NCBI GenBank assembly: GCA_007376185.1
Contig: VMFS01000003.1
Coordinates: 25,983 to 89,982 of the forward strand
Direction: 5' to 3'
DNA length: 64,000 nucleotides
From: Parcubacteria group bacterium Gr01-1014_30
GTDB lineage: Bacteria > Patescibacteriota > Minisyncoccia > Minisyncoccales > 2-12-FULL-40-12
In this document: in pieces, positions 12,785 to 58,251 of the stretch
How the letters are laid out: every line of letters begins with the position of its first letter
Numbering within the stretch: position 1 is the stretch's first letter
Translations under genes and position numbers: made by a program
The notes under the pieces: generated by a model
What the model saw: the letters and a program-made list of their open reading frames with translations, nothing else
Told to the model about the DNA's origin: nothing
Database searches by the model: none

Positions 12785-13546
12785 ATGCCTAAAGTATCCA
12801 TCATAGTTAGAACAAAGAACGAAGAAAAGTGGATAGGCGAGTGTTTGAGAGCGGTTTTCGGCCAGAAGTTTAAGGGGTTCGCTGAAACTTCGTCTCCTTT
12901 CACTCCCGCAGGGGCGAGAAGAGAACGAAGTTCTCTGCGAGCGCCTCTCTCTGTTTCACAGAGTTCGGCTTTTGAAGTTGTTGTTGTTGATAACGGGAGC
13001 TTTGACAAAACGTTGGATATCGCGAAAAAATTTCCGGTGAAAATCGTTCATCACAAAGGTAAAGCTTGGTTTCCCGGAAGGTCAATTAACGCCGGAATCA
13101 GAAATTCGTCCGGAAAGTACATTGCTTTGCTTTCGGGACACTGCGTTCCTGTAAACAATAGTTGGCTTAGCGATTTAGTGAGGGAAGTAAAAGCTCCAAA
13201 AATTGCTGGAGTCTACGGCAGGCAACTCCCTTTGCCAGAAAGTTCACCCTTGGACAAGCAGGATTTATTGATGTTTTTCGGCAAAGACCCATTAATTCAA
13301 ACAAAAGGACACTTCTTTTATTTTGACAACGCAAATTGCGTTATCAAAAGGTCGGTTTGGGAGAAAATTCCCTTTGACGCAAAAATTAGGCACAAAGAAA
13401 ACATTATTTGGGGCAGAAAAGTTGTTCAAAGAGGATACAAAATTGTTTACACTCCCAAAGCAAAAGTTTATCACTGGCACGGAATAAATCACGCAGGAAA
13501 TATAAAAAGAGCCAAAGAAGTGGTTAAAGTGCTGGAAAAATTATGA
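12785..13546 (+). CDS. Family 2 glycosyltransferase carrying an in-frame palindromic insert
   Basis: VSIIVRTKNEEKWIGECLRAVFGQ...EVVVVDNGSFDKT is a GT2 N-terminus. A 30-aa foreign segment interrupts it. Confidence 0.75.
   Translation: MPKVSIIVRTKNEEKWIGECLRAVFGQKFKGFAETSSPFTPAGARRERSSLRAPLSVSQSSAFEVVVVDNGSFDKTLDIAKKFPVKIVHHKGKAWFPGRSINAGIRNSSGKYIALLSGHCVPVNNSWLSDLVREVKAPKIAGVYGRQLPLPESSPLDKQDLLMFFGKDPLIQTKGHFFYFDNANCVIKRSVWEKIPFDAKIRHKENIIWGRKVVQRGYKIVYTPKAKVYHWHGINHAGNIKRAKEVVKVLEKL
12881..12970 (+). repeat. In-frame GC-rich palindromic module (90 nt, 30 codons)
   Basis: Encodes AETSSPFTPAGARRERSSLRAPLSVSQSSA between KFKGF and EVVVVDNGS. Arms gaaacttcgtctc / gagaacgaagttctc. Hairpin ctctg-tttca-cagag. 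Confidence 0.7.
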
Positions 13547-17670: not shown

Positions 17671-18341
17671 TAAACCTTTTTGATCATCCATTTACAATCA
17701 CTACCTACAATGCCTTTCGGCGAAGATTTTTAATTGGGAAGGCAAAACTGCAGCGTCGAAATTTTGACGATTATATTTTTGGTTTGTGGGCAAAGAACTT
17801 TGGTGTAGCCCTAGATATTAATTGTTTGAAAAGGTTGGATACTATCTTGCAAAAAATGAAACCACGATCGATTTTTGAATTTGGCTCATGAGTTTCCACG
17901 GCAGTGCTTGCAAAGTATGCAGAAAACAACGATTGCACTATTACCGTAGTCGAAGATAGTTCTACTTATTTGGAGATTATGAAAAAAAATATTTCAACAA
18001 AGTATAAAAGTGATCACTTCACTTTTGTTTATGCGCCGAATCACTACAAGGATTATCTGGAAGCGAGTATCAATCCAGGAACGATGGATTTGGTGGTTAT
18101 CGATGGTCCTGATGGAGAAGAACATCGGCTATACAATAAGTTTTTCTATGAAAAGATTATTGGACCTGAAACTACATGCATTATTGATGATACAGACTAT
18201 TCTGCGCTCGATAGACTTGCGGAGGAGATTGCGCGCAGAAATTCGCTAAAGAAAATTGATTTTCGGGATGCGTTTTATAGTAAAGCACATCAATACTCAA
18301 TTCTCTTCCCGCAAACAGCAAACACCAAAGAAATAATATGA
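17667..18341 (+). pseudogene. Class I methyltransferase-like gene interrupted by a single in-frame TGA (17889-17891)
   Basis: ORFs 17667-17891 and 17904-18341 share one frame. The continuous reading is ...RSIFEFGS-TGA-VSTAVLAKYAE...DLVVIDGPDG. The stop sits where a Gly of an E-x-G-x-G-type SAM motif is expected. Confidence 0.5.
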
Positions 18342-19564
18342 AGATCCTTTTCGTGGCCGGAACAAACTTTGAGTTGTATTACCTGAGTTCAGTTGTTTAT
18401 CTTCTGCGATCGTATGACAAGTCGCTTGAGTTTAAGCTGTTTTTGCGCCGCAATTTCGCCAACAATATTACGCCTGAAGTCAGAAGTTTGTATTCAGAAA
18501 TAGAGCTTTTTCAAATTCCTGCTTTAACTCCGCCTCTAACTTGGAATCCCGCAAAGATGCTTTACAATATTTTTGAAAACTTTTACGACTATTTGGTTTA
18601 CAGAAATCAAATGAAAGAAAATCTTTCCAAAGTTGAAATTGCTTGCATATGCGGCATAAAAGAGTTTTTCGCCAACGTGTTGGCAAAACACGCCCCAAAG
18701 AACTTGCGCATAGTTGCTTTAAGGCTCGCCAACCAGCGGCTTGAGGAGACAAAGGAGTTTCGCAAGCGTCCTTTTCTTTCATTTTTATTAAATATTAAAA
18801 ACAGAATTTTTGGATATTCGCCAGTTGAATATAAATGGAGCTTTAAAGGAGGATTAGATCCCTTAACTAAAAACTTCGTCAGCTACCCTTACCATCGCAC
18901 AATATCCATTACCGATCATAACATTGGCAGAGAAGATTCTTTCTTCAGACTGCCGCCGCCATTTGTCGCATTAAAAAAACTATACAAAGGGGGTAGTAGA
19001 AGTTCGGCCGGACTTCGTCCGACTGATTCGCATTCGGCGAATGCCGAACTTTCACTACCCCCCAAACTCCAAGATCAAACTCCTGCCATTTTGCTGGCTG
19101 GCGATAAAACCCCGTTTTATGAAGGATGGGCCGAAAAGGACGAAAAAACATACGAGAGCGTTCTTGATTTTTTGAGAGAAAATTTTCCCAAGCACAAACT
19201 TTACTTCAAACCTAAGATAGGCAGGACAGATCCTTCCAAATACAATTTAGCCGGTTTTGAGCTTTTGTCACCTGACATTTCTTTGGAAGAGATTTGCTTG
19301 AGATATAACATTCAAAAAGTAATTTCCATAAGGTCAACGAGTTCAAAAGTAGGATCTTATTTTGGTATTCCAAGTTATATGCTTTACCCTTTGTTTCCCA
19401 TTCCCGAGCGGTTCAAAGAAGGCATTGAAAATGAGCACTACGATATGCGGTCGGTCGTTAGAGTTTCAAAACTTGAAGATATACTCTTTAAATCCGATAC
19501 ATTCATACAACAATATAACCTTGAAAAATTAGCAGAGCTCTATTGGCAAGCAATAGTTGAGTAA
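18338..19564 (+). CDS. Hypothetical glycan-cluster protein carrying an in-frame palindromic insert
   Basis: Long ORF with ATGA coupling to both neighbours. No recognisable motif by eye. Confidence 0.4.
   Translation: MKILFVAGTNFELYYLSSVVYLLRSYDKSLEFKLFLRRNFANNITPEVRSLYSEIELFQIPALTPPLTWNPAKMLYNIFENFYDYLVYRNQMKENLSKVEIACICGIKEFFANVLAKHAPKNLRIVALRLANQRLEETKEFRKRPFLSFLLNIKNRIFGYSPVEYKWSFKGGLDPLTKNFVSYPYHRTISITDHNIGREDSFFRLPPPFVALKKLYKGGSRSSAGLRPTDSHSANAELSLPPKLQDQTPAILLAGDKTPFYEGWAEKDEKTYESVLDFLRENFPKHKLYFKPKIGRTDPSKYNLAGFELLSPDISLEEICLRYNIQKVISIRSTSSKVGSYFGIPSYMLYPLFPIPERFKEGIENEHYDMRSVVRVSKLEDILFKSDTFIQQYNLEKLAELYWQAIVE
18989..19063 (+). repeat. In-frame GC-rich palindromic module (75 nt, 25 codons)
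   Basis: Outer arms gggggtagtagaagttcggc / gccgaactttcactacccccc (18/20). Inner hairpins cgga-cttcg-tccg and attcgc...gcgaat. Encodes GGSRSSAGLRPTDSHSANAELSLPP. Confidence 0.75.
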
Positions 19565-20635: not shown

Positions 20636-21396
20636 GTAGAAAATACCCGAAATTTATATATTTCCTATATAACTTCATAAACCCGATAATTAATCCTCAT
20701 CGGTTAGTAAAATTTATACCGGAATATCTTAATTTTTTTAAGAACTTGATTAAATATTTTAGAATGGGAGGGGCAGAAAAATTTAGTTTTTTTGATTTAA
20801 CCCCTTCTCTTTATGAGAGAACGCCAAGTTCGGGATTTGACCGCCATTATTTTTACCAAGACATCTGGGCTGCAAGAAGGATAATTAAAAGTCAGGTCAA
20901 ACGTCATATTGACGTTGGCTCTAGAGTGGATTTTGTGGGTTTTTTATCTGCGGTTTGCAAAGTAACTTTTGTTGACATTCGTCCTTTAGAAGTAAATTTA
21001 AAAAATTTTGAATCAGTGAAAGGCAATATTATATCTTTGCCTTTCAAAGATAATTCTATTCCATCACTTTCTTGCCTGCATGTAGCCGAACACATTGGAC
21101 TTGGCAGGTATGGAGACAAACTAGACCCCAAAGGGACAGAGAGGGCTTGCCGAGAACTTACCAGGGTTTTGGCGAAGGGAGGCAATTTATATTTTTCTTT
21201 GCCAGTTGGCAAACCAAAATTGTGTTTCAACGCGCACAGGATTCACTCGCCTGAACAAATTCTTCAGTATTTTAGCGGCTTAAAATTGGTTGAACTTTCA
21301 GGAGTTAATGACAAAGGCATATTCAGAGAAAAGATTGCCGTTGACCGGCTGAAAAATGAAAATTATGCCTGCGGCCTATTTTGGTTTAAAAAATGA
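20632..21396 (+). CDS. DUF268-like SAM-dependent methyltransferase
   Basis: LSCLHVAEHIGLGRYGDKLDPKGTERACRELTRVLAKGGNLYFSLPVG matches the DUF268 methyltransferase pattern. Confidence 0.55.
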   Translation: MSRKYPKFIYFLYNFINPIINPHRLVKFIPEYLNFFKNLIKYFRMGGAEKFSFFDLTPSLYERTPSSGFDRHYFYQDIWAARRIIKSQVKRHIDVGSRVDFVGFLSAVCKVTFVDIRPLEVNLKNFESVKGNIISLPFKDNSIPSLSCLHVAEHIGLGRYGDKLDPKGTERACRELTRVLAKGGNLYFSLPVGKPKLCFNAHRIHSPEQILQYFSGLKLVELSGVNDKGIFREKIAVDRLKNENYACGLFWFKK

Positions 21397-22883
21397 AGCA
21401 TCAGCTCAATGTTTTCAAAACGGAGTTAAGGGAAAGAGGTCTATTTTATGCTTTGAAAAAGGCAGTGCTTTATTTATTGCGGCCAATTACCGATTTAATG
21501 AAGACAAGCACATTTTTGGTAAACTTGCGGTATGGAGTTTTGCCTAATCTGTTATCAAAAATCACGTTTCATCAAGATAATCTGCTACTAAAACTCCCGC
21601 AAACCGATTTAGTTCGCGCCGTGCGGAACTTTTGGTATGGAAGTATTCTCGACAGGTTTGTTCTTGAAGGAGAGGAAATTAAAAAAGAAGAAATTTTTAC
21701 TTACGGAGGACCTAACCCCGAATTTAGTTGCCCAATTTGCCAAAAGGCAGAGTGGGTGTCAAGAATCAGACAAGAAAATTTATTTTTAGATCATTCTTGT
21801 CCAAGTTCTGAAAAATGCAGGAAATTGTGCGAAAAGCAAGGCAATGATTTATGGACTCACTTTCACCAGAATTTTGATTTTTCTTTGGGTTGCTCCGCTG
21901 ACTTGCCGGCTCCCAAAGGCGTTTACGTCCTTTTTGGGAAACTGGATATGTTTCACGCTCTTCGTTTGGAACCAATGGAGAGAATTTTTCATCGCCAATT
22001 TGCTTTTGCTTGTCAGCTTGATATAGCAGAAGGGCCTTTTGGCATTGACTGGAAAAAATATGATTTTATGTTTATGTATCTTCCGGGAGCCGTGCCCAAA
22101 TTTAAACGTCCACCAATTCCAGTAATTCTTTTCGCTCACGATTTTTGGCGAGAACCCAAAGCCAGTCAGTGGGTATTGGACTGGTTGGAGCCAGAGGTCT
22201 TTTTAACTACTTACCCAACTCAATTTAAAGAAAATTATCGTTTTCCAAAAAATACCAAAGTTGTATTTCACCCCATGTTTACGTCAAATTTCTTTACCAG
22301 ACCCAATCTTTCTCAAAAATCAATTGATTTGCTTTCAGTGGGGAACACCAAGGGGCCTCTTTATCAAGGAAGGAGAAACTTGAATATGCAATTGCAAAAA
22401 TTTAAAGAACAATACCCCTCATATAAACTTGAATTTTCGCACATTGTGGGCACTCTTAAGCCGAATGAGCAAGAGGGACTTGAATACACCGATTCTCAAG
22501 GCAACCAAATAAGATATTTAAATAAATGGTCAGAATACTTGGGAACTGCAAAATATGTTATTTTCGGCAAAATGAAATATCCTATTTTGGTCGGTAAATA
22601 TTACGAAACCTTGGGGTCTGGCGCCATACCCATTTTCCCTGAAGTGCCCGACTTGAAACTTTTGGGAGTAAAACCCTTTGAACACTATATTCCCTTAGCT
22701 GAAATTGAAGGAAATTCAGAAAGATTAAAATATTTTTTAGATAATTACGAAAAATTCAAGTATATTGGCAAAAATGCGGTAAAATGGTATAAAGATAATT
22801 CAGATAAGATGCTTTTTGCCGGTTTTGAGGGCTCAATTAGAGAAGTTACCAATTATAAATTTCCAAAAAGATTAGTTCGCTGA
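21393..22883 (+). CDS. Hypothetical protein with C-terminal GT-B-like (CgeB-type) region; its stop codon is supplied by a repeat module
   Basis: C-terminal KYYETLGSGAIPIFPEVPDL...FEHYIPL. The TGA at 22881-22883 lies inside gttcgctgaaacttcgtttcctctc. Confidence 0.4.
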   Translation: MKHQLNVFKTELRERGLFYALKKAVLYLLRPITDLMKTSTFLVNLRYGVLPNLLSKITFHQDNLLLKLPQTDLVRAVRNFWYGSILDRFVLEGEEIKKEEIFTYGGPNPEFSCPICQKAEWVSRIRQENLFLDHSCPSSEKCRKLCEKQGNDLWTHFHQNFDFSLGCSADLPAPKGVYVLFGKLDMFHALRLEPMERIFHRQFAFACQLDIAEGPFGIDWKKYDFMFMYLPGAVPKFKRPPIPVILFAHDFWREPKASQWVLDWLEPEVFLTTYPTQFKENYRFPKNTKVVFHPMFTSNFFTRPNLSQKSIDLLSVGNTKGPLYQGRRNLNMQLQKFKEQYPSYKLEFSHIVGTLKPNEQEGLEYTDSQGNQIRYLNKWSEYLGTAKYVIFGKMKYPILVGKYYETLGSGAIPIFPEVPDLKLLGVKPFEHYIPLAEIEGNSERLKYFLDNYEKFKYIGKNAVKWYKDNSDKMLFAGFEGSIREVTNYKFPKRLVR

Positions 22884-22921
22884 AACTTCGTTTCCTCTCA
22901 CGTTTAGTTTCGCTTAGCAAA
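22875..22921 (+). repeat. Copy of the GTTCGCTGAAACTTCGTYTCCT module at a gene end
   Basis: gttcgctgaaacttcgtttcctctc is nearly identical to 12877-12901, which is read through in frame there. Confidence 0.7.
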
Positions 22922-22930
22922 ACTCAACTT

Positions 22931-23860
22931 ATGAATACAAATAAAAAAATCCTTGTTACTGGGGTTTTGGGAACCATTGGCATGCCGCTTTGGGAAGAGC
23001 TTAGAAAAAGAGGATACCAGGTTTTTGGCTGTGACCTCCGTCATTATCATGACCCCGAGTATTTGAGATGCGATGTAAGTGAGTATCGGCAGCTGGACAG
23101 AATTTTCAGCGAGCATAAATTTGATTATGTTTACCATATGGCTGCTGAATTCGGCAGAAAAGGCGGTGAAGACTTTTATGAGTCCTTGTGGAAGACAAAT
23201 GCCGTTGGCACGAAAAACATACTAAGGGCGCAAGAGAAATACAAATTCAGGTTGATTTATCCGAGCAGTTCAGAGGTTTACGGCACCGCCTATTCAGGAG
23301 TTATGACCGAAGACGTGCCGCAAAAGGTTGCTGTTCGCTTGGGCAACGATTACGGCATGTCAAAGTGGGTCAATGAAATGCAGATTATGAATTCCATGGA
23401 AAAGTTTGGCACGGAAACAGTAAGAGTTCGCTTTTCCAATGTTTACGGACCCGGAGAATATTACAGCGATTACCGCAGCGTTATCTGTATTTTTATCTAC
23501 AGAACTCTGCACAATTTGCCTTATACCGTTTATAGTAACGACAAAAGGGCATTTCTTTACATAGATGACGCGGTGCGCACGTTCGCCAATATATGTGAAA
23601 GATTCAAATCAGGAGAAGTTTACAACATCAGCAACAGGGATTTGGTAGATATGAAGCAGGTTTCAGACATAATTATCAAAATACTTGGCAAAGATGACCG
23701 GCTTATTGAGTACAAAGAGATAGACGCTACGGCCACTTTGGTTAAAGACCTTGATAACTCAAAGGCCTTGCGCGATTTGGACCACAAAAAAACGATTTCT
23801 TTGGAAGAAGGATTGGACCAAACCATAGAATGGCAGAAAAAAGTTTATGGAATTAGTTGA
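22931..23860 (+). CDS. SDR sugar epimerase/dehydratase
   Basis: ILVTGVLGTIGMPL. SSSEVYG. YGMSKWVNE (YxxxK). Confidence 0.7.
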   Translation: MNTNKKILVTGVLGTIGMPLWEELRKRGYQVFGCDLRHYHDPEYLRCDVSEYRQLDRIFSEHKFDYVYHMAAEFGRKGGEDFYESLWKTNAVGTKNILRAQEKYKFRLIYPSSSEVYGTAYSGVMTEDVPQKVAVRLGNDYGMSKWVNEMQIMNSMEKFGTETVRVRFSNVYGPGEYYSDYRSVICIFIYRTLHNLPYTVYSNDKRAFLYIDDAVRTFANICERFKSGEVYNISNRDLVDMKQVSDIIIKILGKDDRLIEYKEIDATATLVKDLDNSKALRDLDHKKTISLEEGLDQTIEWQKKVYGIS

Positions 23861-25106: not shown

Positions 25107-25153
25107 CTTCGAAATAGTCAGAAGAGATAAATCTCTTCCTTATTTTCGCTAAC
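25106..25153 (-). repeat. Copy of the AGCGAAGATAAGGAAGAGATTTATCTCTTC hairpin core (reverse orientation)
   Basis: gcttcgaaatagtcagaagagataaatctcttccttattttcgctaac is the reverse complement of the cores at 12635-12681 and 44851-44900. Confidence 0.7.
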
Positions 25154-25162
25154 ACTTGATAA

Positions 25163-28377: not shown

Positions 28378-29265
28378 ATGTTGACCATTTTTACAACAAC
28401 AAAGCCATCAATAGGAGAAATTGGCTTCATTCAGAGAAATGCGATTAATAGCTGGCGGTTGTTGAGGCCCAAGCCACAGATACTTTTATTTGACAACGAA
28501 AAGGGCGCAAAAAAACTGGCAAAAGACCTTAAAATAACTCACGTTCCGGAGGTTCGAAAAAACGAATACGGCACGCCGCTGGTTAGAGATATTTTTGAGA
28601 AGGCTCAAAGTTTGGCCAAGAACAGGATTTTGGCGTATGTTAACGCCGACATTATTTTAATGCAGGATTTTATGGAGGCGATTTCAAGGATAAAGTTTGA
28701 TAAATTTGTTCTTGTCGGCCAGAGAAGGGACATTGACATCAAAAAGAATATAAGATTTCAGAAAGGCTGGCGGGAAAAGTTACGCAAGATTGTTGCCAAA
28801 GAAAGCAAGCTTCACGGGCCTTCAGGCATAGATTATTTTGTTTTCCCAAAAGGTTTTTTTTCAAACATACCTAATTTTGCTTTGGGGAGAACTCTTTGGG
28901 ACAACTGGTTTTTGTACAAAGCTTGGATTTCGGGCGCTACTTTGATAGACGCGACCGAAGTTATAACGGCCATTCACCAAAATCACAAAGTTCACCTGCC
29001 CCGAGGGCATAAAAAAAACGTCTGGAAGGGACCTGAAGCTAAAATGAATCAAACGTTAGCCGGCGGGCTATCTCGCGCTTTCACAATCAGGGACTGCTCC
29101 AAACTTTTGACAAAAGAAGGTTTAGAAAATCCCAAGGTCGATTTTTACAGAATCTTTTCCGCGCCTTTCCGTTACTACGACAAGCTGCCAGCTTTAAAGC
29201 CGTTTTTGTTCTTTGGCTGGCTAGTTTTCTTAATATGGCGAAAAATAAAGATAATCAAAACTTAA
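28378..29265 (+). CDS. Hypothetical, possible GT-A-like glycosyltransferase with C-terminal TM helix
   Basis: TIFTTTKPSIGEIGFIQRNAINSW...AYVNADIIL pattern. C-terminal hydrophobic LFFGWLVFLIW. Confidence 0.35.
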   Translation: MLTIFTTTKPSIGEIGFIQRNAINSWRLLRPKPQILLFDNEKGAKKLAKDLKITHVPEVRKNEYGTPLVRDIFEKAQSLAKNRILAYVNADIILMQDFMEAISRIKFDKFVLVGQRRDIDIKKNIRFQKGWREKLRKIVAKESKLHGPSGIDYFVFPKGFFSNIPNFALGRTLWDNWFLYKAWISGATLIDATEVITAIHQNHKVHLPRGHKKNVWKGPEAKMNQTLAGGLSRAFTIRDCSKLLTKEGLENPKVDFYRIFSAPFRYYDKLPALKPFLFFGWLVFLIWRKIKIIKT

Positions 29266-30926
29266 TCAGGATAGGTTTGGCTCAAATAAACTGCACTGTC
29301 GGCGACTTGGAAGGAAATTTCCAAAAAATTAAAGCGTGGATAAAAAAAGCCGAGGATCTTAACCTTGACGTTATCGCTTTTCCTGAGCTTGCAATAACCG
29401 GTTACCCGCCAGAAGACCTTTTGCTCAAACCCAGATTTATCCAAGACAACTTGAAAAAAATAAGAGAGCTAGCACCTTTTGTTAAAAAAACAGCGGCCAT
29501 TGTGGGATTTGTTGATAAAGAAGGAAGTCACATATATAACTCCGCCGCCTTAATCAAAGGAGGAAAAATAGTTGGAGTTTATCGTAAAATGTGTTTGCCA
29601 AACTACGGCGTATTTGACGAAAAGCGTTATTTTCTGCCGGGGCAGAAGCTTTTGGTTTTCAAAATAGGGAAAATTACAGCTGGAATAAATATCTGTGAGG
29701 ACATCTGGGAAGAATCTGGCCCCACAAGGGCGCTGGGCAAAAGGGGGACAAAAATAGTGTTTACCATCAATGGGTCCCCATACCACCAAGGTAAAATTAG
29801 ACAAAGAGAAGAAATAGTTAAAGATCAAGCTAAAGCAAACAAAATTGCAGTAGTTTACATCAATTTGGTAGGTGGCCAAGATGAGTTGGTTTTTGACGGT
29901 CAGAGCATGGTAGTGGATAGTAAGGGTTTAGTGGTCTCGAGAGCCAAAGCGTTTGTGGAAGAGTTGCTGGTGGTGGAAATAGATGCAACGGGTTCTAAAT
30001 TAAAATTTAAAAGTTCAAAATTGGAATCTCTTTTTTTGGAAGAAGAAGTATATAAAGCGTTATTGCTCGGCTTGGGAGATTATGTGAGGAAAAACGGTTT
30101 CAAAAAAGTGGTAGTTGGGCTTTCTGGCGGGATTGATTCATCTTTGGTAGCAACTTTGGCTGTTGACGCTTTGGGCAAAGATAACGTCACTGGAGTAGTT
30201 ATGCCTTCAAGGTTTTCTTCTCTTTTATCAAAAGAAGACGCAGAAAGTTTAGCTAAAAATTTGAGAATTAAATTAATGATAGTTTCTATTGAACCAATTT
30301 TCAAAGCTTACTTGGAAACCTTAAATCCACAAATTCAAGATTTGGAGCAGGATATAGCTATGGAGAACATTCAAGCTAGGATCCGCGGCAACATTTTAAT
30401 GGCTTTTTCCAATAAATTTAACTGGCTGGTTTTGACCACCGGGAACAAATCAGAGATGAGTGTGGGTTATGCCACCCTTTATGGAGATATGGCTGGAGGT
30501 TTCGCGCCCATCAAAGATATTCCCAAAACTTTGGTCTACAAGCTTGCAAGATACAGAAACTCGCTTGCCGAGCCCGTGACGGCGAGGCGGGAGAGGTTAG
30601 CAGAACATTCAGCGACCTCAAGAGTCATACCGGAAAGTGTGCTAGTAAAGGAACCATCGGCCGAGCTGAGGTTAAACCAAAAAGACAGAGATTCTCTGCC
30701 GCCTTACGAAATCTTAGACCCTATCTTGAAGTTATACGTTGAACAGGATTTAGGCGTTGATCGGATTTTGAAGTTGGGTTTTGAGAAAGAGGTTGTTTCA
30801 AAGGTTGCAGGAATGGTTGACAAATCAGAATATAAGAGAAGGCAGTCGCCTCCTGGCATCAAAATCACTCCCAAGGCTTTTGGCAAAGACCGAAGAGTGC
30901 CAATTACCAACAAGTATGGAAAATAA
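29235..30926 (+). CDS. nadE: Glutamine-dependent NAD+ synthetase carrying an in-frame insert
   Basis: N-terminal CN-hydrolase domain (IGLAQINCTVGD, FPELAITGYPPEDL). PP-loop VVGLSGGIDSS. KEPSAEL. Confidence 0.85.
   Translation: MAKNKDNQNLIRIGLAQINCTVGDLEGNFQKIKAWIKKAEDLNLDVIAFPELAITGYPPEDLLLKPRFIQDNLKKIRELAPFVKKTAAIVGFVDKEGSHIYNSAALIKGGKIVGVYRKMCLPNYGVFDEKRYFLPGQKLLVFKIGKITAGINICEDIWEESGPTRALGKRGTKIVFTINGSPYHQGKIRQREEIVKDQAKANKIAVVYINLVGGQDELVFDGQSMVVDSKGLVVSRAKAFVEELLVVEIDATGSKLKFKSSKLESLFLEEEVYKALLLGLGDYVRKNGFKKVVVGLSGGIDSSLVATLAVDALGKDNVTGVVMPSRFSSLLSKEDAESLAKNLRIKLMIVSIEPIFKAYLETLNPQIQDLEQDIAMENIQARIRGNILMAFSNKFNWLVLTTGNKSEMSVGYATLYGDMAGGFAPIKDIPKTLVYKLARYRNSLAEPVTARRERLAEHSATSRVIPESVLVKEPSAELRLNQKDRDSLPPYEILDPILKLYVEQDLGVDRILKLGFEKEVVSKVAGMVDKSEYKRRQSPPGIKITPKAFGKDRRVPITNKYGK
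30561..30620 (+). repeat. In-frame GC-rich palindromic module (~60 nt)
   Basis: Encodes SLAEPVTARRERLAEHSATS between LARYRN and RVIPESV. Stem cgcttgccg / cggcgaggcg. Boundaries are approximate. Confidence 0.5.
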
Positions 30927-38782: not shown

Positions 38783-39509
38783 ATACTATGACAAGAAAGT
38801 TGGCGACTTTCAAAGGTTTAAGCCTTCTTTTTTAAGCAGTTATAAATTTCTTTATCAGCTGCTGAAAAACAGGTGCAGAGATAAAGTTGTTTTAGATTTT
38901 GGCTGCGGCGCAGGATTGCACAGCGTACAATTAGCGAAAATGGGAGCAAAAAAAGTTATAGGCATTGATTTGTCGGAGGCTTCTTTGAAGGCGGCAAGAC
39001 TAAGACATGAAATGCAAGATACGAAACACAATATACAATTTATCAACATGGATTGCGAGAACCTGGATTTTGCGGATAGTTATTTTGATGTTATCTTTGA
39101 TGGCGGAACTTTTTCCTCAATTGATTTGGAAACAACTTGGCCGGAACTGATCAGGGTTTTAAAACCGGATGGAGTTTTAATAGGCATTGAAACGTTTGGG
39201 CATAATCCCTTGACCAACTTGAAGCGGAAATTTAACAAACTGACCGGCAATAGAACTGCGTGGGCGGCAAAGCATATTTTTAGAATGCCAGATTTGGCCA
39301 AAGCCAAAGTATATTTCGGCAGCACTGAAGCTTATTACTTTCACTTAGTTTCCTGGCTGGCATTTCCTTTTTTGCGTCTTCCCGGAGGAAAGTTACTGTT
39401 AAAGATACTTGAACTTACTGATAGAATACTCTTGGAGCTGCCTTTTTTGAGAAAATACTCGTTTAAGGTTGTGTTCATTTTTAGCGAACCGAAAAAGAGC
39501 AATAAATGA
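38754..39509 (+). CDS. Class I SAM-dependent methyltransferase (type 11)
   Basis: VLDFGCGAGLHS. VIFDGGTFSS. LKPDGVLIGIE. Confidence 0.7.
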   Translation: MEERKQKEIEYYDKKVGDFQRFKPSFLSSYKFLYQLLKNRCRDKVVLDFGCGAGLHSVQLAKMGAKKVIGIDLSEASLKAARLRHEMQDTKHNIQFINMDCENLDFADSYFDVIFDGGTFSSIDLETTWPELIRVLKPDGVLIGIETFGHNPLTNLKRKFNKLTGNRTAWAAKHIFRMPDLAKAKVYFGSTEAYYFHLVSWLAFPFLRLPGGKLLLKILELTDRILLELPFLRKYSFKVVFIFSEPKKSNK

Positions 39510-39543
39510 TTAAGCCTTTTGTTTCAGTAATAATTCCTTGTAG

Positions 39544-39605
39544 GCTCGCTGAGACTTCGTCTCCTCTCGCACACTGCGCTCGCTTGCGTGAGCGAAGATA
39601 AGAAC
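39544..39605 (+). repeat. 62-nt palindromic module flanked by a ~43-47-bp duplication of the GT2 gene start
   Basis: gctcgctgagacttcgtctcctctcgcacactgcgctcgcttgcgtgagcgaagataagaac. Flanks 39515-39543 and 39624-39652 are a 29-nt direct repeat with 1 mismatch. Confidence 0.75.
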
Positions 39606-39614
39606 AATAAATAA

Positions 39615-40598
39615 ATGACGACCCCTTTTGTTTCAATAATAATTCCTTGTAGAAACGAGGAGAGATATATAAGTAAGTGTTTGGAAACGATTTTGGCTCA
39701 GGATTACCCCAAAGACAAAATGGAAATTTTAGTTGTTGACGGTATGTCTGAAGATAAAACCAGAGAGATAATTAAAAATTGGAAATTAAAAATTGGAAAT
39801 TTAAGATTATTGGATAATCCCAAAAAAATTGCGCCTTCAGCTCTCAATATAGGCGTAAAAAACAGCACAGGGGAAATAATAATGAGAATGGACGCTCATG
39901 CCCGCTACGAACGAGATTATCTTTCAAAATGCGTGAAGTACTTGAAAGAATACGGCGCTGACAATATCGGAGGAACGATGAAAACCCTGCCCCAAAAAAG
40001 TACCATTGTCGCCAAAGCAATCGCGCTGTCTTTGTCTCACATATTCGGAGCCGCTTCCCGATTTAGAATAGGGGAAAGTCAACCGGTCGCTGAACTTCGT
40101 TCATCTCCTACCCTTCGCTCCGCTCGGGTCAAAGAGGTAGACACTGTTTTTGGCGGATGCTACAAAAGAGAGGTTTTTGACAGAATAGGGTTTTTTAACG
40201 AAAACTTAATTCGTTCCCAGGATTTGGAGTTTAATTTGCGCTTGAAAAGAGCCGGCGGCAAAATAATCTTACATCCTGATATTGTCAGCTATTATTATCC
40301 CAAGCCGACTCTGGGCGAATTTTTCTGGCACAACTTTCAAGACGGCATTTGGTCAATCCTGCCATTGAAGTTTGTCAAAGTTCCTTTTAAGTTAAGGCAT
40401 TATATTCCCTTGATTTTTGTTTTGACTCTGCCCTTGAGCTTTTGGCCGTATATTTTGCTTTCTCTGTTTTTTTCTCTGCAGATTGCCGCTCGAGAGAAAG
40501 ATTTAAGGTTGTTTTTCGCAATGCCCTTGGCTTTTGCGACAAGACATTTTGGTTACGGTTTGGGTTCAATTTGGGGATTAGTTAAGTTAATTTTATGA
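39615..40598 (+). CDS. Family 2 glycosyltransferase carrying an in-frame insert and a 14-nt tandem duplication
   Basis: VSIIIPCRNEERYISKCLETILAQDYP...ILVVDGMSEDKT...RMDAHA. C-terminal TM helices. Confidence 0.75.
   Translation: MTTPFVSIIIPCRNEERYISKCLETILAQDYPKDKMEILVVDGMSEDKTREIIKNWKLKIGNLRLLDNPKKIAPSALNIGVKNSTGEIIMRMDAHARYERDYLSKCVKYLKEYGADNIGGTMKTLPQKSTIVAKAIALSLSHIFGAASRFRIGESQPVAELRSSPTLRSARVKEVDTVFGGCYKREVFDRIGFFNENLIRSQDLEFNLRLKRAGGKIILHPDIVSYYYPKPTLGEFFWHNFQDGIWSILPLKFVKVPFKLRHYIPLIFVLTLPLSFWPYILLSLFFSLQIAAREKDLRLFFAMPLAFATRHFGYGLGSIWGLVKLIL
39770..39806 (+). repeat. 14-nt (2 x 7) tandem repeat aaattaaaaattgg x ~2.5 inside a CDS
   Basis: Read directly. Encodes IIKNWKLKIGNLRLL. Confidence 0.7.
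40083..40130 (+). repeat. In-frame GC-rich module (~48 nt) related to the GCTGAAACTTCG family
   Basis: Encodes PVAELRSSPTLRSARV between RIGESQ and KEVDTVFGGCY. The gctgaacttcgttcatctcct core resembles gctgaaacttcgtctcct. Confidence 0.55.
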
Positions 40599-41236
40599 AA
40601 CGATTTTTTGACTTTACAGCAGCTTTGTTTGGGCTGGTTTTGCTTTCGCCCTTGCTCTTACTTTGCGCAATTTTAATTAAAAGAGAATCGCCGGGACCCG
40701 CTTTTTACAGAGGAATCAGAATCGGCAAAGAGGGCAAACCTTTTAGGATTTTTAAGTTCAGGACAATGGTGCCAGATGCAGAAAATCTGGGCGGCCCTTC
40801 AACAGCGGGCGACGACCCGCGGCTTTTGAAAATCGGCAATTTTCTCAAAAAATACCAACTGGACGAGCTGCCGCAACTGATTAACGTTTTGAAAGGCGGT
40901 ATGAGTTTGGTGGGTCCCAGGCCAGACGTGATAGGAATGGTTGAGCTACTAATAGCGGAGGAAAAAAAAATGATTTTGAGTCAGATACCAGGGATGGTTG
41001 ATTTGTCATCCCTTTGGAATTTTAATGAAGGAGAAAGATTGGCTGGTAAAATAGATCCTCATAAAGTATACTTAGAAGAAATATGGCCAACTAAAAAAAG
41101 GTTACAAATATATTATATCCAAAATCGAAGTACTTGGCTTGATATTAGAATTATTTTTAGAGCAGTATTTAAAATATTTGGTCTTAACTGGTTTGCAATA
41201 AAAATTCATGTTGGAGAAGAAGTGTTTAATTTGTAA
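40595..41236 (+). CDS. Initiating polyprenyl-phosphate sugar phosphotransferase (WbaP/PglC bacterial sugar transferase family)
   Basis: RFFDFTAALFGLVLLSPLLLL...ESPGPAFYRGIRIGKEGKPFRIFKFRTM...DELPQLINVLKGGMSLVGPRP. Confidence 0.8.
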   Translation: MKRFFDFTAALFGLVLLSPLLLLCAILIKRESPGPAFYRGIRIGKEGKPFRIFKFRTMVPDAENLGGPSTAGDDPRLLKIGNFLKKYQLDELPQLINVLKGGMSLVGPRPDVIGMVELLIAEEKKMILSQIPGMVDLSSLWNFNEGERLAGKIDPHKVYLEEIWPTKKRLQIYYIQNRSTWLDIRIIFRAVFKIFGLNWFAIKIHVGEEVFNL

Positions 41237-41633
41237 AAAACAATTTTTGGTGAAACCATATCGGTATATAATTGGAAAGTTTTGTTCGCGCGTGTGTTAC
41301 GGTGCTTTTTTAAAGAGTTATATGAAGGGGCTCCGAAATCCATGGTGGAAAGGCGGTAAGAATAAGAGTACGTGGAGATTAAGAGTGTTAGAAAGAGATA
41401 ACTATACCTGCCAAGGATGTGGAATAAATGATTCTAGGGTTCTTACAGTAGACCATATTAGGAATAAGTCATTGCATAAAGATGTGATATATGAAATTAG
41501 TAATGGTGTCACTTTATGCGCTAATTGCCACTTGATCAAAACTAAAGAAGATAAAGAGCTTAGTGCAGTATTCAGTAAAACTTCAAGTAAAACTGTGCGT
41601 AAAACGCTTTTAGGAAGATATGCCAAACTATAA
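41208..41633 (+). CDS. Free-standing HNH endonuclease with N-terminal zinc ribbon
   Basis: RVLERDNYTCQGCG...LTVDHIRNKS...NGVTLCANCH. N-terminal CLICKK...FCSRVC. The region is AT-rich. Confidence 0.7.
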   Translation: MLEKKCLICKKQFLVKPYRYIIGKFCSRVCYGAFLKSYMKGLRNPWWKGGKNKSTWRLRVLERDNYTCQGCGINDSRVLTVDHIRNKSLHKDVIYEISNGVTLCANCHLIKTKEDKELSAVFSKTSSKTVRKTLLGRYAKL

Positions 41634-41910
41634 AGAAACAGCGAAAGATGCAAGGAAAACAGTCCTCCGCTTAATTTACAACGCCCAGACAAGCCACATA
41701 GGTTCAAATTTTTCGGTAGTGGATATTTTGACAGTTCTTTTTGATAAGGCGGATTTAGACAGAGACAAAATAATCTTGAGCAAGGGATGGGCCGCGGCTG
41801 CTCTTTATTACTTTTTGTGGCGCAAAGGCAGAATTACGGAAAAAGAGCTGAACAGTTATTGTCAACATGTAATGTGCGATGAATGTAAAGGGACGGGCAA
41901 AAAGGCTTAA
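41620..41910 (+). CDS. Transketolase N-terminal (TPP-binding) subunit, 5' fragment, with a foreign CxxCxGxG tail
   Basis: TSHIGSNFSVVDILTVLF...DKIILSKGWAAAALYYFLWRKGRITEKEL is the transketolase N-terminal pattern. Ends with HVMCDECKGTGKKA-stop. Confidence 0.7.
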   Translation: MPNYKETAKDARKTVLRLIYNAQTSHIGSNFSVVDILTVLFDKADLDRDKIILSKGWAAAALYYFLWRKGRITEKELNSYCQHVMCDECKGTGKKA

Positions 41911-41941
41911 CTTTTGCAACTGGATTTGCTATAGTTAATAT

Positions 41942-42757
41942 GTGCCAACAGGAGTTTATAAAAGAACAAAATCAGCTTGGAATAAGGGCCATAAAACGGT
42001 TCACTCTTTTATTTGCCAAACATGTAATCAAGAATTCTTTTCTGAAAGGACAAAAGCAAAATTTTGCAAACGCTCTTGTATAAGAACAGATACACAATTT
42101 AAAAAAGGGCAAAAACCTTTGTATGCATTCTCCAAGGGCATCATTCCATGGAATAAAGGCAAGCGAGAACTTGTTAGAAGGATTTGCCCAACCTGCAAGA
42201 AAGAGTTTTCTTTCGTATTAACAGGTAAGGGAAGCAAAAAAAGAGGTCAGAAATTTTGTTCTGTGGCGTGTAACAGAAGTGATACACAATTTAAAAAAGG
42301 GCATACTTTGAAGCTAAGAATCCTTCATTCTGAAGTAACGAAGAAAAAGTTAAGCGAACTCGTTAAAGAAAGAACTGCTGCAGGAAAACATAATTTTGTT
42401 AAAGGCCATCAATTTGGATTTAAAAAAGGATCTGTCCCTTGGAATAAAGATAAAGATTTCGGCAGCACAGAATATCTTGCAAAAAGAATTTCGTGGTTAA
42501 CACTATATCGTGAATGGCGCCTATCAGTTAAAGAGAAAGATGGATTTAAATGTACAAACTGTGGGGGTAAAAATAATTTAAACGTTGATCATTATCCAGT
42601 TTCTTTAGCAGAGCTTATACGGAAATATAAAATTAAGAATCCACAGGAAACAAAAAAGCGTAGAGAATTTTGGGATATTAAGAATGGTAGAATGCTTTGC
42701 GTTTCGTGTCATAAACAGACACCAACATATGGGAAAAACTTTGTGCGAAAAGTGTAA
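41942..42757 (+). CDS. HNH-type homing endonuclease-like protein (GTG start) inserted within the transketolase gene
   Basis: Repeated zinc-ribbon/NUMOD-like units (FCKRSCIRTDTQFKKGQKP, FCSVACNRSDTQFKKGHT, PWNKGK). C-terminal KCTNCGG...NLNVDHYPVS...MLCVSCH. Confidence 0.6.
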   Translation: MPTGVYKRTKSAWNKGHKTVHSFICQTCNQEFFSERTKAKFCKRSCIRTDTQFKKGQKPLYAFSKGIIPWNKGKRELVRRICPTCKKEFSFVLTGKGSKKRGQKFCSVACNRSDTQFKKGHTLKLRILHSEVTKKKLSELVKERTAAGKHNFVKGHQFGFKKGSVPWNKDKDFGSTEYLAKRISWLTLYREWRLSVKEKDGFKCTNCGGKNNLNVDHYPVSLAELIRKYKIKNPQETKKRREFWDIKNGRMLCVSCHKQTPTYGKNFVRKV

Positions 42758-44719: not shown

Positions 44720-45091
44720 GGGGACAGGACTCAAACTAGAGTCACCTTGAGAAGCGAAAAAAATGAGATGATTTCAAGGCGCAACGACGCAGGCGCACTA
44801 GCGAAAGCGGATGCGTCAAGGAGGAGCAACGCAGAAATCAGCCATCGAGCGTTAGCGAAGATAAGGAAGAGATTTATCTCTTCCGACATTTTTTCGCTTC
44901 CCCCAAGGGCGGGCAAATTAGGACAATCTTCTTCGTTGTTCCGATTCCTTCGGAATCGAGAATCCTCGACAGCTTCGCTGTCGGGACTCGTCGTTAGCGT
45001 ATCTCGTTCCGCAGATACGCTCAGCTCCTCGCGCCTATAATCTTGCCCTAATTCGCTCCGCTCAAGTGATTCTATCTTGAGTCCTATCCCC
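44720..45091. mobile_element. 372-bp non-coding MITE-like element with ~31-nt terminal inverted repeats
   Basis: Left end ggggacaggactcaaactagagtcaccttgag. Right end ctcaagtgattctatcttgagtcctatcccc. The interior is a chain of short hairpins (gattccttcggaatc, cgacagcttcgctgtcg, agcgtatctcgttccgcagatacgct) plus the gaagagatttatctcttc core. Confidence 0.6.
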
Positions 45092-46344: not shown

Positions 46345-46417
46345 ACCCCGTAATACAACTTCCAGCACGCTTCGCGTGCAAAATCGCTGAAAGCGACTGG
46401 AAGATGATATACGGGGT
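46345..46417 (+). repeat. Y-shaped structured repeat, copy 1 (candidate ncRNA / REP-like element)
   Basis: accccgta-atacaa-cttccag-[cacgc ttc gcgtg]-caaaa-[tcgct gaa agcga]-ctggaag-atgata-tacggggt. Confidence 0.7.
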
Positions 46418-46425
46418 AAATAAAC

Positions 46426-55511: not shown

Positions 55512-55527
55512 ATTGACTTAAATTTTG

Positions 55528-55886: not shown

Positions 55887-57125
55887 ATGAAAAAGTATTT
55901 TTTACTTTTGTTGATTTTAGCCATATTTTTGGTTCTTTATTTTTGGCCTTTTCCTGGAGTTCAAAAGCCAGCAGAGCCAGCCTTGGAGACGGAAGTTACG
56001 GACCAAATAACCGTTGATGAAGTTGAAGAACCAGATGAAGGTGAAGAGTCGGAAGGTCTTGAGGTGGTCGCCCGAGAACTGCAAATTCCTTGGGAAATAG
56101 CTTTCCTGCCTGCGCCTGACCGCCTGTCTGCGCAGGCAGGCGCAGGCAGGCAGGAAGGTTTGCCTGATGGCACTTTACTGGCAACCGAAAGGCCGGGAAA
56201 CTTGGCAGTTATTCGTGACGGAAAGGTCGTTAGTCGCATTGCGGTTTCCGGCGTTTACCACAGCGGCGAAGGGGGCTTGCTAGGCATGGCTTTGCATCCA
56301 GATTTCAGGGAGAACAAATTTTTGTATCTCTATTTCACATACAGGGAAGGCAGCCAAACCAAAAACAAAGTGGAGAGATATATTTTTGACGGCGACATTT
56401 TGTCAGACAGAAAAATTATTATTGACAACATTCCGGGAGCTGCAAATCACAACGGCGGCAGAATCGCTTTCGGGCCAGACAGCTACTTATATATAACTAC
56501 TGGAGACGCGCAGGCGCCTAATTTGGCGCAGAACATCAATTCGCTTGCCGGAAAGGTTTTGCGTTTAAGAGACGATGGTTCCATTCCCGAGGACAACCCC
56601 TTTGCTTCGGCCGGCTCAGCACAAGCTGACGCGGTTTGGTCTTTTGGCTATCGCAATCCGCAAGGCCTGGCGTGGGACCAAGCAGGGAGGTTATGGAGCA
56701 CAGAGCACGGCCCTTCTTCTTTGGTGTTGCCGAATTGCTGCCAGGACGAGGTTAATTTGATTGAGAAAGGAGCTAACTACGGCTGGCCAGATAGTGTTGG
56801 AGGTAAAGTAAAAGCAGGAACTATGGCGTCAAAACTGCATTCAGGCGGCGACACTTGGGCGCCATCTGGCGCGGCATACTATAACGGCTCTTTGTTTTTT
56901 GGCGGCCTAAGAGGCCAGAGTTTATATGAGGTGGTTTTACAGGGAGAGGAAGTTGTTGAATTAAAGAGACACTTTAAAGGAGAGTTCGGGCGGATCCGGG
57001 GGGTTTCTCTGGAGCCTGACGGTTTTTTGTACATTATCACTTCCAACAAAGACGGCAGAGGCGTTCCCCAAGCCGACGACGACAAGATAATTCGACTGAA
57101 CCCCAAACTCATCTTTAGTTATTAA
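55887..57125 (+). CDS. PQQ-dependent soluble sugar (glucose/sorbosone) dehydrogenase-like beta-propeller, membrane anchored, with an in-frame insert
   Basis: LGMALHPDF...YLYFTY, NHNGGRIAFGPDSYLYITTGD, GYRNPQGLAWD, GANYGWP. N-terminal TM helix plus an acidic linker. Confidence 0.75.
   Translation: MKKYFLLLLILAIFLVLYFWPFPGVQKPAEPALETEVTDQITVDEVEEPDEGEESEGLEVVARELQIPWEIAFLPAPDRLSAQAGAGRQEGLPDGTLLATERPGNLAVIRDGKVVSRIAVSGVYHSGEGGLLGMALHPDFRENKFLYLYFTYREGSQTKNKVERYIFDGDILSDRKIIIDNIPGAANHNGGRIAFGPDSYLYITTGDAQAPNLAQNINSLAGKVLRLRDDGSIPEDNPFASAGSAQADAVWSFGYRNPQGLAWDQAGRLWSTEHGPSSLVLPNCCQDEVNLIEKGANYGWPDSVGGKVKAGTMASKLHSGGDTWAPSGAAYYNGSLFFGGLRGQSLYEVVLQGEEVVELKRHFKGEFGRIRGVSLEPDGFLYIITSNKDGRGVPQADDDKIIRLNPKLIFSY
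56109..56162 (+). repeat. In-frame GC-rich palindromic module (54 nt, 18 codons)
   Basis: Encodes PAPDRLSAQAGAGRQEGL between IAFL and PDGTLLATER. Arms cctgcctgcgc / gcgcaggcagg. Confidence 0.75.
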
Positions 57126-57196
57126 ACAACCTTAAACAGCACTTTCAACAACTGTACAGTTTTAATTTTGGTCAAATTTGGTAGAATGATAAAATT

Positions 57197-57565
57197 ATGT
57201 CAATTTGGATGGTGACAATCATTTTACTCGCAGCCGCGCTTTCGGGCTGGCTGCTTTTGAAAAGAAACCCTGACCGTTATATTCACGAGAAAACATCGCC
57301 AATGAACATTTTCTTCAAGTGGGGTCACGCTTGGCACCATATTTTTAAGGTCGCGATAATCATTTTGGTTATGATTGTCGTTTTTTCTCTTTACAAGTAT
57401 CTTTTGGCGGCTTCTAGGGTTTTTGCGTTAACAGTAGCGGTCTTGGCCGGAGTTATTCTTTCTGGCGGAAAGGAATTGCTGGATAAATATATTACCTTGG
57501 ACGATGTCATCTCCTCTGCCTTAGCTATAATTGCGGGCTTTTTGTTGCTGTTTTTTCTTTTTTAA
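57197..57565 (+). CDS. Small membrane protein, unknown function
   Basis: Four predicted hydrophobic helices. No motif. Confidence 0.35.
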   Translation: MSIWMVTIILLAAALSGWLLLKRNPDRYIHEKTSPMNIFFKWGHAWHHIFKVAIIILVMIVVFSLYKYLLAASRVFALTVAVLAGVILSGGKELLDKYITLDDVISSALAIIAGFLLLFFLF

Positions 57566-58248: not shown

Positions 58249-58251
58249 GGA

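Follow-up and report, generated by a model that had tools for sequence, protein, structure and literature searches.

In-frame insertion in a Parcubacteria glycosyltransferase gene belongs to a family of small double-hairpin repeats that are probably mobile

The DNA analysed in this study is a stretch of 64,000 nucleotides (nt) of contig VMFS01000003.1 (positions 25,983 to 89,982, forward strand) from Parcubacteria group bacterium Gr01-1014_30, and this whole stretch is referred to as the window. The second family-2 glycosyltransferase (GT2) gene of the window carries an in-frame insertion of 45 nt which, as judged by its sequence, is a true member of a family of repeats, each built of two hairpins (H1 and H2). 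The repeat is not specific to GT2 genes, as copies were found in many unrelated hosts. The favoured explanation, to which a probability of roughly 80% was assigned, is that of a non-autonomous mobile (selfish) double-hairpin element, with the intragenic copies being the remainder after selection had removed those that broke the reading frame or the fold of the host. This explanation draws on family membership, covariation within the hairpins, insertion relative to homologues, presence, absence and nesting among relatives, a skew in reading frames, a motif on one flank only and the lack of a target-site duplication, all of which were observed. The features of the GT2 site are as follows.

39615..40598, forward strand: host gene, family-2 glycosyltransferase of 327 amino acids (aa); Pfam PF00535, E 1e-27.
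40085..40129, forward strand: core of a short-subfamily element, 45 nt, an in-frame insertion read as V158-V172.
40085-40109, forward strand: H1 of the insertion, with stem TGAAC (40091-40095), loop TTC and stem GTTCA (40099-40103).
40110-40113 and 40126-40129, forward strand: H2 remnant, in which ACCC pairs with GGGT.
40130..40135, forward strand: flank CAAAGA of the form NNNNGA, which is native target sequence, its Lys-Glu codons being also present in homologues without the insertion.

The annotated product of the open reading frame (ORF) 39615..40598 starts at Met27. Within this ORF, positions 40083-40130 read ccggtcgctgaacttcgttcatctcctacccttcgctccgctcgggtc and encode the peptide PVAELRSSPTLRSARV. 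Residues V158-V172 (40086-40130) constitute a 15-aa insertion in the GT2 protein, which was missing from 16 of the 19 homologues compared (62-79% identity, protein alignment); in these 16 proteins the sequence ...FRxGxxKP is joined straight to KEVDTVFGG. At the DNA level, the empty orthologue in metagenome locus L129 has GCAAAAGTC followed directly by AAAGAAGTAGAT, and the window has 45 more bases ahead of AAAGAGGTAGAC. In the AlphaFold model, residues 147-170 have a pLDDT below 50 and form a non-regular segment between the helix 131-141 and the strand 173-175, although this low pLDDT is partly expected because most of the aligned sequences are gapped at the insert. A preliminary description of this DNA, made from the sequence alone, had proposed a related in-frame module in the second GT2 gene, and this proposal was confirmed both by the gap in the homologues and by the covariance model described below (30.9 bits).

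The preliminary description had also reported a related sequence at 12881, 22879 and 39548. The 18-mer GCTGAAACTTCGTCTCCT was indeed recovered at these three sites with at most one mismatch, compared with 0.05 matches expected and with a count of 3 reached by 0 of 100 shuffles, and the block common to the sites was 27 nt long. The short 11-mer core GCTGAACTTCG alone was not significant (3 matches with at most one mismatch versus 1.04 expected), and independent evidence was therefore needed. Public metagenome contigs were scanned with the pattern GNTCGCTGARACTTCGTYTC, and at least 120 matching stretches were obtained, against roughly 20 expected by chance according to our own estimate of the collection size. 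Almost all of the matching stretches listed lie on contigs of 33-44% GC, and from this low GC content the carrier contigs probably belong to the Candidate Phyla Radiation (CPR). About a dozen stretches on high-GC or unrelated contigs, in which the rest of the element is missing, were set aside as chance matches.

The alignment A4, made of 34 distinct 60-nt copies of which none came from the window, was used to build the covariance model R1, which was then run over the whole 64-kb window with filters off. Five loci matched, including the GT2 site (40082-40138, forward strand) at 30.9 bits and E 1.9e-6, a score obtained from a model without any window sequence. On 726 kb of the matched metagenome loci R1 gave 140 hits, often several per contig; two to four copies were present on many metagenome contigs and were sometimes clustered (L034, L064, L053). 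The counts of frames, flanks and hosts presented here rest on metagenome loci among the matches listed, plus the window. A scan of reference genomes with the motif variant specific to the window (...GTYTCCT, where the canonical form is ...GTCTCAT) returned two unrelated chance hits, the pattern being too specific to be informative. A profile of the doubled 42-aa peptide searched against 5.8 billion sequences yielded 1489 word-sharing candidates, none of them at E ≤10.

The canonical core is 54 nt long and consists of two adjacent 27-nt hairpins, H1 and H2. From its sharp onset at a G (position 0), conservation extends over 54 nt in 35 of the 44 distinct copies; this core length and those of the 45-nt and 39-nt forms are all divisible by three. 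H1, whose canonical sequence is GNTCGCTGARACTTCGTYTCAYCT, has the form G-N-TCGC-TGAGAC-TTC-GTCTCA-TCTC-N'-C, in which N pairs with N', and is nearly invariant in sequence; this invariance is partly a matter of ascertainment, the H1 pattern having been set by the search pattern. The R1 hits bring in variant H1 stems (AGAGAAC/GTTCTCT, TGAAC/GTTCA and GAAGAAAG/CTTTCTTC), with the flanking TCGC and TCTC unchanged. H2 has the form RCC-TC-G(stem)-TTC-(stem')C-TC-GGY with a base RCC(C)...(G)GGY, and its upper stem is different in nearly every copy and still paired (for example CCCCGC/GCGGGG, GTTCGAC/GTCGAAC and CTCGGC/GCCGAG).

The pairing was quantified on A4 for 18 pairs: 91.7% of the cells were paired, compared with 35-47% when the partners were slid by 1-3 columns. 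Changes on both sides were found in 11 of the 18 pairs, and the observed covariation score was reached by 0 of 500 shuffles. The covarying pairs include N/N' (GC 25, CG 3, UA 2, AU 1), the H1 stem (GC/AU) and the base of H2 (G-C and A-U, 24 and 8), and RNAalifold independently recovered both H1 and H2 unaided. On the element strand, G-U pairs (11) did not outnumber C-A pairs (at least 13), and neither strand is therefore singled out as RNA. As a separate observation on the anatomy of the element, H2 is replaced by two to three tandem 15-nt units GCCTCGCTYGGCTTC in L080 (3746-3826), L039, L052 and L056 (peptidyl-tRNA hydrolase and other genes), which points to growth of the element by in-frame tandem duplication as well; in L035, L073 and L074 the H2 stem is shorter than in L063 by an in-frame deletion of 18 nt.

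The GT2 copy reads GG-TCGC-TGAAC-TTC-GTTCA-TCTC-CT, followed by ACCC-TTCGCTCCGCTC-GGGT. It has the H1 pattern of the R1 family, with a stem one pair shorter than the canonical one, as in L084, L064 and L054, and it has the H2 base and the NNNNGA pattern (ACCC/GGGT, then CAAAGA). This short form (45-nt core, stem TGAAC-TTC-GTTCA) recurs on other contigs in unrelated ORFs, namely in L084, L064 and L054, with L097 being intermediate, and by our own count the window copy is ~84% identical to L084. What the preliminary description had taken for a private '-1, +4' indel variant is instead a 45-nt short subfamily, in which each arm of the H1 stem is a base shorter without loss of the hairpin. Relative to L003 the copy has two 1-nt gaps, which were considered as compensatory deletions in situ; this idea was dropped, as the same short stem occurs in unrelated genes. 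The register shifts after the first missing base: the canonical AETSSHL is encoded by GCT GAG ACT TCG TCT CAT CTC, and the AELRSSP of the short form by GCT GAA CTT CGT TCA TCT CCT. The peptide AELRS(S/P) was also found in short-form copies of other contigs. The frame and the peptide had been described as preserved across copies; a total length divisible by three is indeed preserved, but the internal frame and the peptide are not kept across subfamilies, and the 'SSP' shared with AETSSP comes from another register of the DNA, and is partly a coincidence.

The other copies in the window, with their flanks, are the following.

22872-22937, forward strand: R1 hit of 63.2 bits, a full-length copy.
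22875..22928, forward strand: full 54-nt core, forming the entire spacer between ORF 21393..22883 and ORF 22931..23860.
22929..22934, forward strand: flank TTATGA, presumably the original ATGA stop/start overlap of both genes.
39541-39598, forward strand: R1 hit of 35.1 bits with a divergent H2.
39544..39600, forward strand: element with divergent H2, between the methyltransferase gene and the GT2 gene.
12874-12978, forward and reverse strands: three overlapping R1 hits of 23.7-32 bits.
12877..12969, forward strand: composite element of 93 nt (31 codons) in the first GT2 gene (12785..13546).
12903..12941, reverse strand: nested 39-nt antisense solo-H1 unit, GCTCGC-AGAGAAC-TTC-GTTCTCT-TCTC-GC plus CCC-TGC-GGG.
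12970..12975, forward strand: flank TTTTGA, which is native target sequence, its Phe-Glu codons being present in the empty orthologue L132.
30558..30620, reverse strand: antisense copy with a variant H1, R1 28.7 bits, E 7.6e-6, which the preliminary description had not listed.

In the full-length copy at 22875, the CGC-TGA of the element is now the stop codon of the upstream ORF, which reads GTT CGC TGA and stops inside the element; the AET frame previously assigned to this copy (22879) is therefore not the one in use. Its H2 is AT-rich yet paired, with a GTT..AAC base. In-frame removal of the 54-nt core would restore ...R L L stop, whose TGA would overlap the start codon ATG of the following gene. 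The 12877 composite consists of a 54-nt core of canonical type (12877-12902 plus 12942-12969) with the nested unit within it. The antisense copy at 30558-30620 lies in frame in the NAD synthase ORF 29235..30926, where it encodes SLAEPVTARRERLAEHSATS just before the conserved motif VIPE..KEPSAELR.

The copy at 39544 (the 39548 match of the 18-mer) is not in a live gene; it stands after a relic copy of the GT2 5' end (39507-39543), within a relic ORF of 31 codons. Around this element the region from the GT2 start to the insertion is duplicated, with arms 39501-39554 and 39610-39663 that are 81% identical, and this duplication is common to the window and L129. At the start of rplC in L010, an element is flanked by a perfect 42-nt duplication (3487-3528 and 3603-3644), and the end of the relic ORF overlaps the real start as ATGA. 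Both of these 5'-end duplications run from the start codon to the insertion point, giving a short relic ORF and then the intact gene.

Comparison with related loci gave empty, filled and nested states of the same sites. For the first GT2 gene, the orthologue in L132 (74% identical) is empty and reads ...AAGGATTTTG followed directly by AAG..., and that in L131 (75% identical) carries exactly 54 extra bases with canonical H1 and H2 (AETSSHLTPLSVSQSSAF). The window has the element of L131 plus 39 bases (12903-12941) between H1 and H2, in the opposite orientation; this nested 39-nt unit is not present in the otherwise identical L131 element. The 39544 copy is present in the window and in L129, and missing in L003 and L004, where an 18-nt spacer is found instead. 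At the second GT2 site, L003 and L004 (GT2 76% identical, same methyltransferase neighbour) carry a canonical 54-nt core between the same two codons, the distant orthologues L126 and L127 carry units with a variant H1, and L129 (77% identical) is empty. The mixed states of this second site may be due to repeated hits on a hot spot, to conversion, or to one old insertion followed by precise losses.

The two flanks of the element differ. No position among the 12 bases of the left flank exceeded 0.3 bit, and in the right flank a GA at +5 and +6 after the core carried 1.5 and 1.3 bits, with a weak A/T preference ahead of it. No excess of target-site duplications was detected, as the longest word shared by the flanks had a mean of 3.02, versus 3.06 in permuted pairs; the look-alike flanks ATTGAGGA and ATCGAGGA, considered as a possible duplication, were rejected on the basis of this permutation test. 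The empty site of L132 and the filled site of L131 differ by exactly 54 nt. On comparison of the sequences, NNNNGA is demonstrably, or very probably, native in three cases (CAAAGA, TTTTGA and TTATGA), which suggests that the element inserts directly 5' of NNNNGA.

Reading frames were analysed at 75 distinct sites, comprising the R1 hits in the metagenome loci, de-duplicated by their flanks, and the window. Fifty-three of these sites (about 70%) lie within stop-free ORFs that are 100 codons long or longer. Four of the six frames of the canonical element are open, and the frames in use were as follows.

Sense +1 (xAETSSHLPPR...AIE): 31 sites.
Sense +2: 2 sites, both doubtful.
Antisense (PSEAKPSEAGDETKSQRP): 10 sites.
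Antisense, basic frame: 3 sites.
Antisense, frame opened by variant H1 alone: 7 sites.

The distribution over the four canonical open frames (31:2:10:3) was strongly skewed (chi-square p = 2.9e-10; +1 versus +2, p = 1.3e-7), and orientation relative to the host gene showed a mild skew (33 sense, 20 antisense; p = 0.10). The favoured frames yield polar, Pro/Ser-rich peptides and the avoided frames Arg/Leu-rich ones, a pattern that fits selection. The preliminary description had suggested that intragenic copies survive under a frame constraint, and named the lack of a frame bias and of shared boundaries as grounds for abandoning the idea. A bias and shared boundaries were in fact both present: the frame bias over the 75 sites (p = 2.9e-10), and boundaries consisting of the sharp 5' G start and the GA fixed at +5/+6 after the core. 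The hosts of sense copies include EF-Ts, YchF, GatB, thymidylate kinase (Tmk), GlmS, LeuRS, Mfd, ClpB and PPDK, and those of antisense copies peptidyl-tRNA hydrolase (Pth), UvrC, deformylase (Def), PRPP synthetase, FtsA and GyrA. In the hosts checked, the element lies in a linker or loop: in GatB, LeuRS, Mfd and GlmS it is found between Pfam domains, and in Tmk and EF-Ts it appears as extra length inside the domain match.

According to the favoured explanation, small GC-rich double-hairpin repeats would have spread through the AT-rich, gene-dense genomes of Parcubacteria and other CPR lineages, presumably by transposition. H1, conserved in sequence, would be the recognition site, and H2 would be conserved in structure only; the structure would be read as single-stranded DNA by an enzyme acting in trans. 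The unit would land immediately 5' of NNNNGA without duplicating the target, and most landings would fall inside genes because CPR genomes have almost no spacer DNA. The copies that persist would be those that add whole codons, have no stop in the frame used and sit in tolerant loops or linkers, where translation would turn each into a short peptide that is polar and rich in proline; the frames would be filtered by selection and not by the mechanism of insertion. Hairpins near the ends, the lack of a target-site duplication and a one-sided motif are, by analogy, the traces that single-strand transposition would leave. A mechanism of the HUH/Y1 type (IS200/IS605- or RAYT-type) is a possible candidate, which was rated at clearly less than even odds because no enzyme was found. 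Searches of the window and about 0.8 Mb of loci by tblastn with IS200 and IS608 TnpA queries gave no match for a RAYT/Y1 gene, and neither a tnpA gene nor an autonomous insertion sequence (IS) partner with matching ends was found in the sampled DNA.

Several points weigh against the favoured explanation. A tblastn search with IS200/IS608 TnpA sequences returned nothing in the window and about 0.8 Mb of loci, which is a weak test as these enzymes act in trans. Different subfamilies occupy one GT2 site in sister lineages, which calls for a hot spot or for conversion among copies. Within a single genome, no recent and identical copies were seen, and H2 is different in every copy of the window, which is odd for plain copy-and-paste from a master copy. 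The GA of the flank opens a GAx codon (Glu/Asp) in frame +1, so a GA target preference in AT-rich coding DNA could supply part of the frame bias; on a rough estimate, a preference for GAx directly after NNNN may lead to an expectation of ~68%, compared with the 94% observed. The window copy folded no better than its shuffles (z = -0.10) and from this weak fold is probably decayed; it is thus covariation among the copies, and not folding energy, that carries the argument for structure. Finally, the taxonomic range was taken from GC content and the NCBI name of the window source.

The same observations bear on other explanations. One might invoke a resemblance due to chance or low complexity, or the usual divergence of loops between GT2 paralogues, as the 11-mer core is not significant and the window copy differs from the 18-mer by indels. 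This possibility is refuted by the results, as a model trained on other genomes only detected the copy at an E of about 2e-6, the copy has ~84% identity to short copies in unrelated genes, the orthologous copy in L003 has a canonical H1, and the 18-mer itself was found 3 times against 0.05 expected. Selection for the peptide, with AETSSHLPPR... acquired by many proteins as a linker, sorting or modification motif, would account for the one dominant frame and for the nine residues (xAETSSHL) conserved in 23 sense copies. It was considered very improbable: conservation of the peptide simply reflects that of the H1 DNA, the peptides of antisense copies are unrelated, the register differs in the short subfamily (AELRSSP), copies stand between genes and act as a stop-codon donor, and the insert lies in a low-confidence loop.

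A functional structure kept by selection at each locus, either in DNA or as RNA within mRNAs (where a CPR RNA-binding protein or RNase might bind or process it, or where it might signal translational pausing), was regarded as unlikely, although it received the most weight among these alternatives. Its strength comes from H2, in which pairing is kept with a different sequence in nearly every copy, including all copies of the window genome. It would also fit the recognisable hairpins retained by insertions common to lineages whose host proteins are 62-77% identical, and the 39544 copy, whose conservation between the window and L129 exceeds what would be expected of a neutral spacer. However, the element occurs in both orientations (33 sense, 20 antisense) and also between genes, the count of G-U (11) versus C-A (at least 13) pairs does not indicate an RNA strand, the hosts have no common function, there was no Rfam match and the window copy is weakly folded. 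Spread by recombination or gene conversion between copies and segmental duplication, instead of by dedicated transposition, would explain the different subfamilies at the same site in sister lineages and the two elements flanked by long duplications of a gene 5' end, and it agrees with the failure to find a transposase. Conversion cannot create new sites in dozens of unrelated genes, and the insertion boundaries are precise, with a conserved motif on one flank only; it was accordingly given a low probability, below that of a functional structure and above that of a selected peptide.

At gathering score, Rfam 15 had no match in the window, and on loci with canonical copies it had none at E ≤1; no tRNAs were found in the window, no exact match in viral contigs, and no blastn match in plasmid and phage collections. 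The element is not a classical miniature inverted-repeat transposable element (MITE), as it has no terminal inverted repeats and no target-site duplication; the core ends GGTCGC... and ...CTCGGC are not complementary, and all pairing is inside each hairpin. MITEs resemble it in being small and non-autonomous and in sometimes coming to lie in frame in genes, but they have the terminal inverted repeats and target-site duplications that the CPR element lacks. Classical bacterial MITEs, such as Correia, Nezha and Chunjie elements, are the subject of a review (PMC10969869).

The nearest described phenomena are the Rickettsia palindromic elements (RPEs) and the hairpin elements of mitochondria. RPEs, reportedly described by Ogata et al. 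(Science 2000), are likewise dispersed palindromic repeats of a small AT-rich genome, many of them in frame in unrelated or essential genes and others intergenic; they are translated as surface peptides, and no transposase is known for them. As with RPEs, a dispersed palindromic repeat was found here to be inserted in frame in protein genes that are unrelated to one another. RPEs measure about 100-150 bp and occur in Rickettsia and relatives, in contrast to a 39-54-nt core in a Parcubacteria host, and the CPR element is further set apart, going by the description of RPEs, by its two side-by-side hairpins and one-sided flank motif. Double-hairpin elements (DHEs) were reportedly found in Allomyces by Paquin et al. 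(2000), and the GC clusters of yeast mitochondria are comparable GC-rich elements. Both are GC-rich two-hairpin units in an AT-rich compact genome and are sometimes in coding sequence, but they belong to organelle genomes, are unrelated in sequence and are mostly intergenic. RPEs are described in papers on Rickettsia genomes (among them PMC1166351 and PMC1458961), and hairpin elements in a paper on sponge mitochondria (PMC2800124).

The element shares with REP/REPIN sequences short imperfect palindromes, a conserved sequence beside the stem, compensatory changes, and an occurrence as singles, inverted doublets and clusters (here 12877-12969, L053, L122, L034 and L064). REP, BIME and REPIN sequences and RAYT transposases are said to have been treated by Nunvar (2010), Bertels and Rainey (2011) and Ton-Hoang (2012). 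REPs are extragenic by definition, unlike the CPR element, of which about 70% of sites (53/75) are inside ORFs, and an assignment to REPs in the defined sense was therefore rejected. Miniature elements derived from IS200/IS605 (PATEs), and the single-strand transposition of IS608 and ISDra2, provide a further comparison. PATEs similarly combine hairpins close to their two ends with a short one-sided motif, and they lack terminal inverted repeats and target duplications; the subterminal hairpins, missing target-site duplication and motif on one flank only were all found in the CPR element. At 45-54 nt, however, the CPR elements are much smaller than described PATEs, and no TnpA was found here. 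A full-text literature search found no report of such repeats in CPR/Patescibacteria, and the family is regarded as new, although elements of its kind are known; to our knowledge, they have not been described before in this lineage.

Other repeats and features were noted in the window. A 74-nt GC-rich palindromic stretch (18989-19062) lies in frame in ORF 18338..19564, with outer arms GGGGGTAGTAGAAGTTCGGC and GCCGAACTTTCACTACCCCC and inner hairpins CGGAC-TTC-GTCCG and ATTCGC-ATTCG-GCGAAT; it reached only 7.9 bits with R1 and looks like a second, different in-frame element. An intergenic repeat family, GTTAGCGAAGATAAGGAAGAGATTTATCTCTTCC, forms a perfect hairpin at 12628-12672 (forward), 44844-44892 (forward) and 25112-25160 (reverse), and its motif GCGAAGATAAG also ends the element 39544-39600. 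An unrelated palindromic repeat of ~75 nt (ACCCCGTAATACAACTT ... AAGATGATATACGGGGT) has three copies at gene ends (46345-46418, 55440-55512 and 58169-58249). GC-rich palindromes at 56102-56156 (GCCTGCCTGC) and 57686-57749 (GCAGGCAGGC) form an inverted pair, with 40-nt arms that are 80% complementary, around the ORFs 55887..57565. A 117-nt block of >60% GC (12667-12783) precedes the first GT2 gene, against about 40% GC in the rest of the window; the orthologous spacer of L132 (1880-1960) is also GC-rich, and this may be a structured leader or another repeat. The stretches 3951-4063, 1203-1236 and 52424-52459 contain an AT-rich palindrome whose arms are 52 nt long, and runs of ATTCAAG/ATTCAAA heptamers at three places. 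The gene table calls an HNH endonuclease at 41208..41633, and the neighbouring ORF 41942..42757 has repeated FKKGH/Cys motifs, as read by eye. The sugar-transferase (Bac_transf) gene and the transketolase genes on either side of the block 41208-42757 are adjacent in the syntenic L129, which gives the block the look of a homing-endonuclease cassette inserted between them.

Extra segments without an explanation are a known trait of CPR/Patescibacteria proteins, and the genomes of these bacteria are regarded as poor in mobile DNA. The repeat family is one concrete source of such segments, with inserts that are tolerated as loops in housekeeping genes (translation factors, a tRNA synthetase, gyrase and a chaperone). 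Its presence, absence and nesting provide a marker for strain and lineage history, and it is a warning for annotators and structure predictors that these stretches of 15-31 residues are not native. The family also offers a tractable case, outside Rickettsia, for the co-adaptation of selfish DNA and reading frames, and the one-sided motif together with the lack of a target-site duplication makes the search for the enzyme well posed. A more speculative proposal, likewise rated at clearly less than even odds, is that of an undescribed CPR-wide class of mobile elements specialised for intragenic life. In such a class the 54-nt length and the open frames would be tuned to coding sequence, H1 would be the handle for the enzyme, and H2 would be rewritten at each insertion, or maintained after it, so that its arms match. 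If this were true, the elements would provide a steady supply of new loops in the essential proteins of ultra-small genomes, and would point to a novel mechanism of mobilisation.

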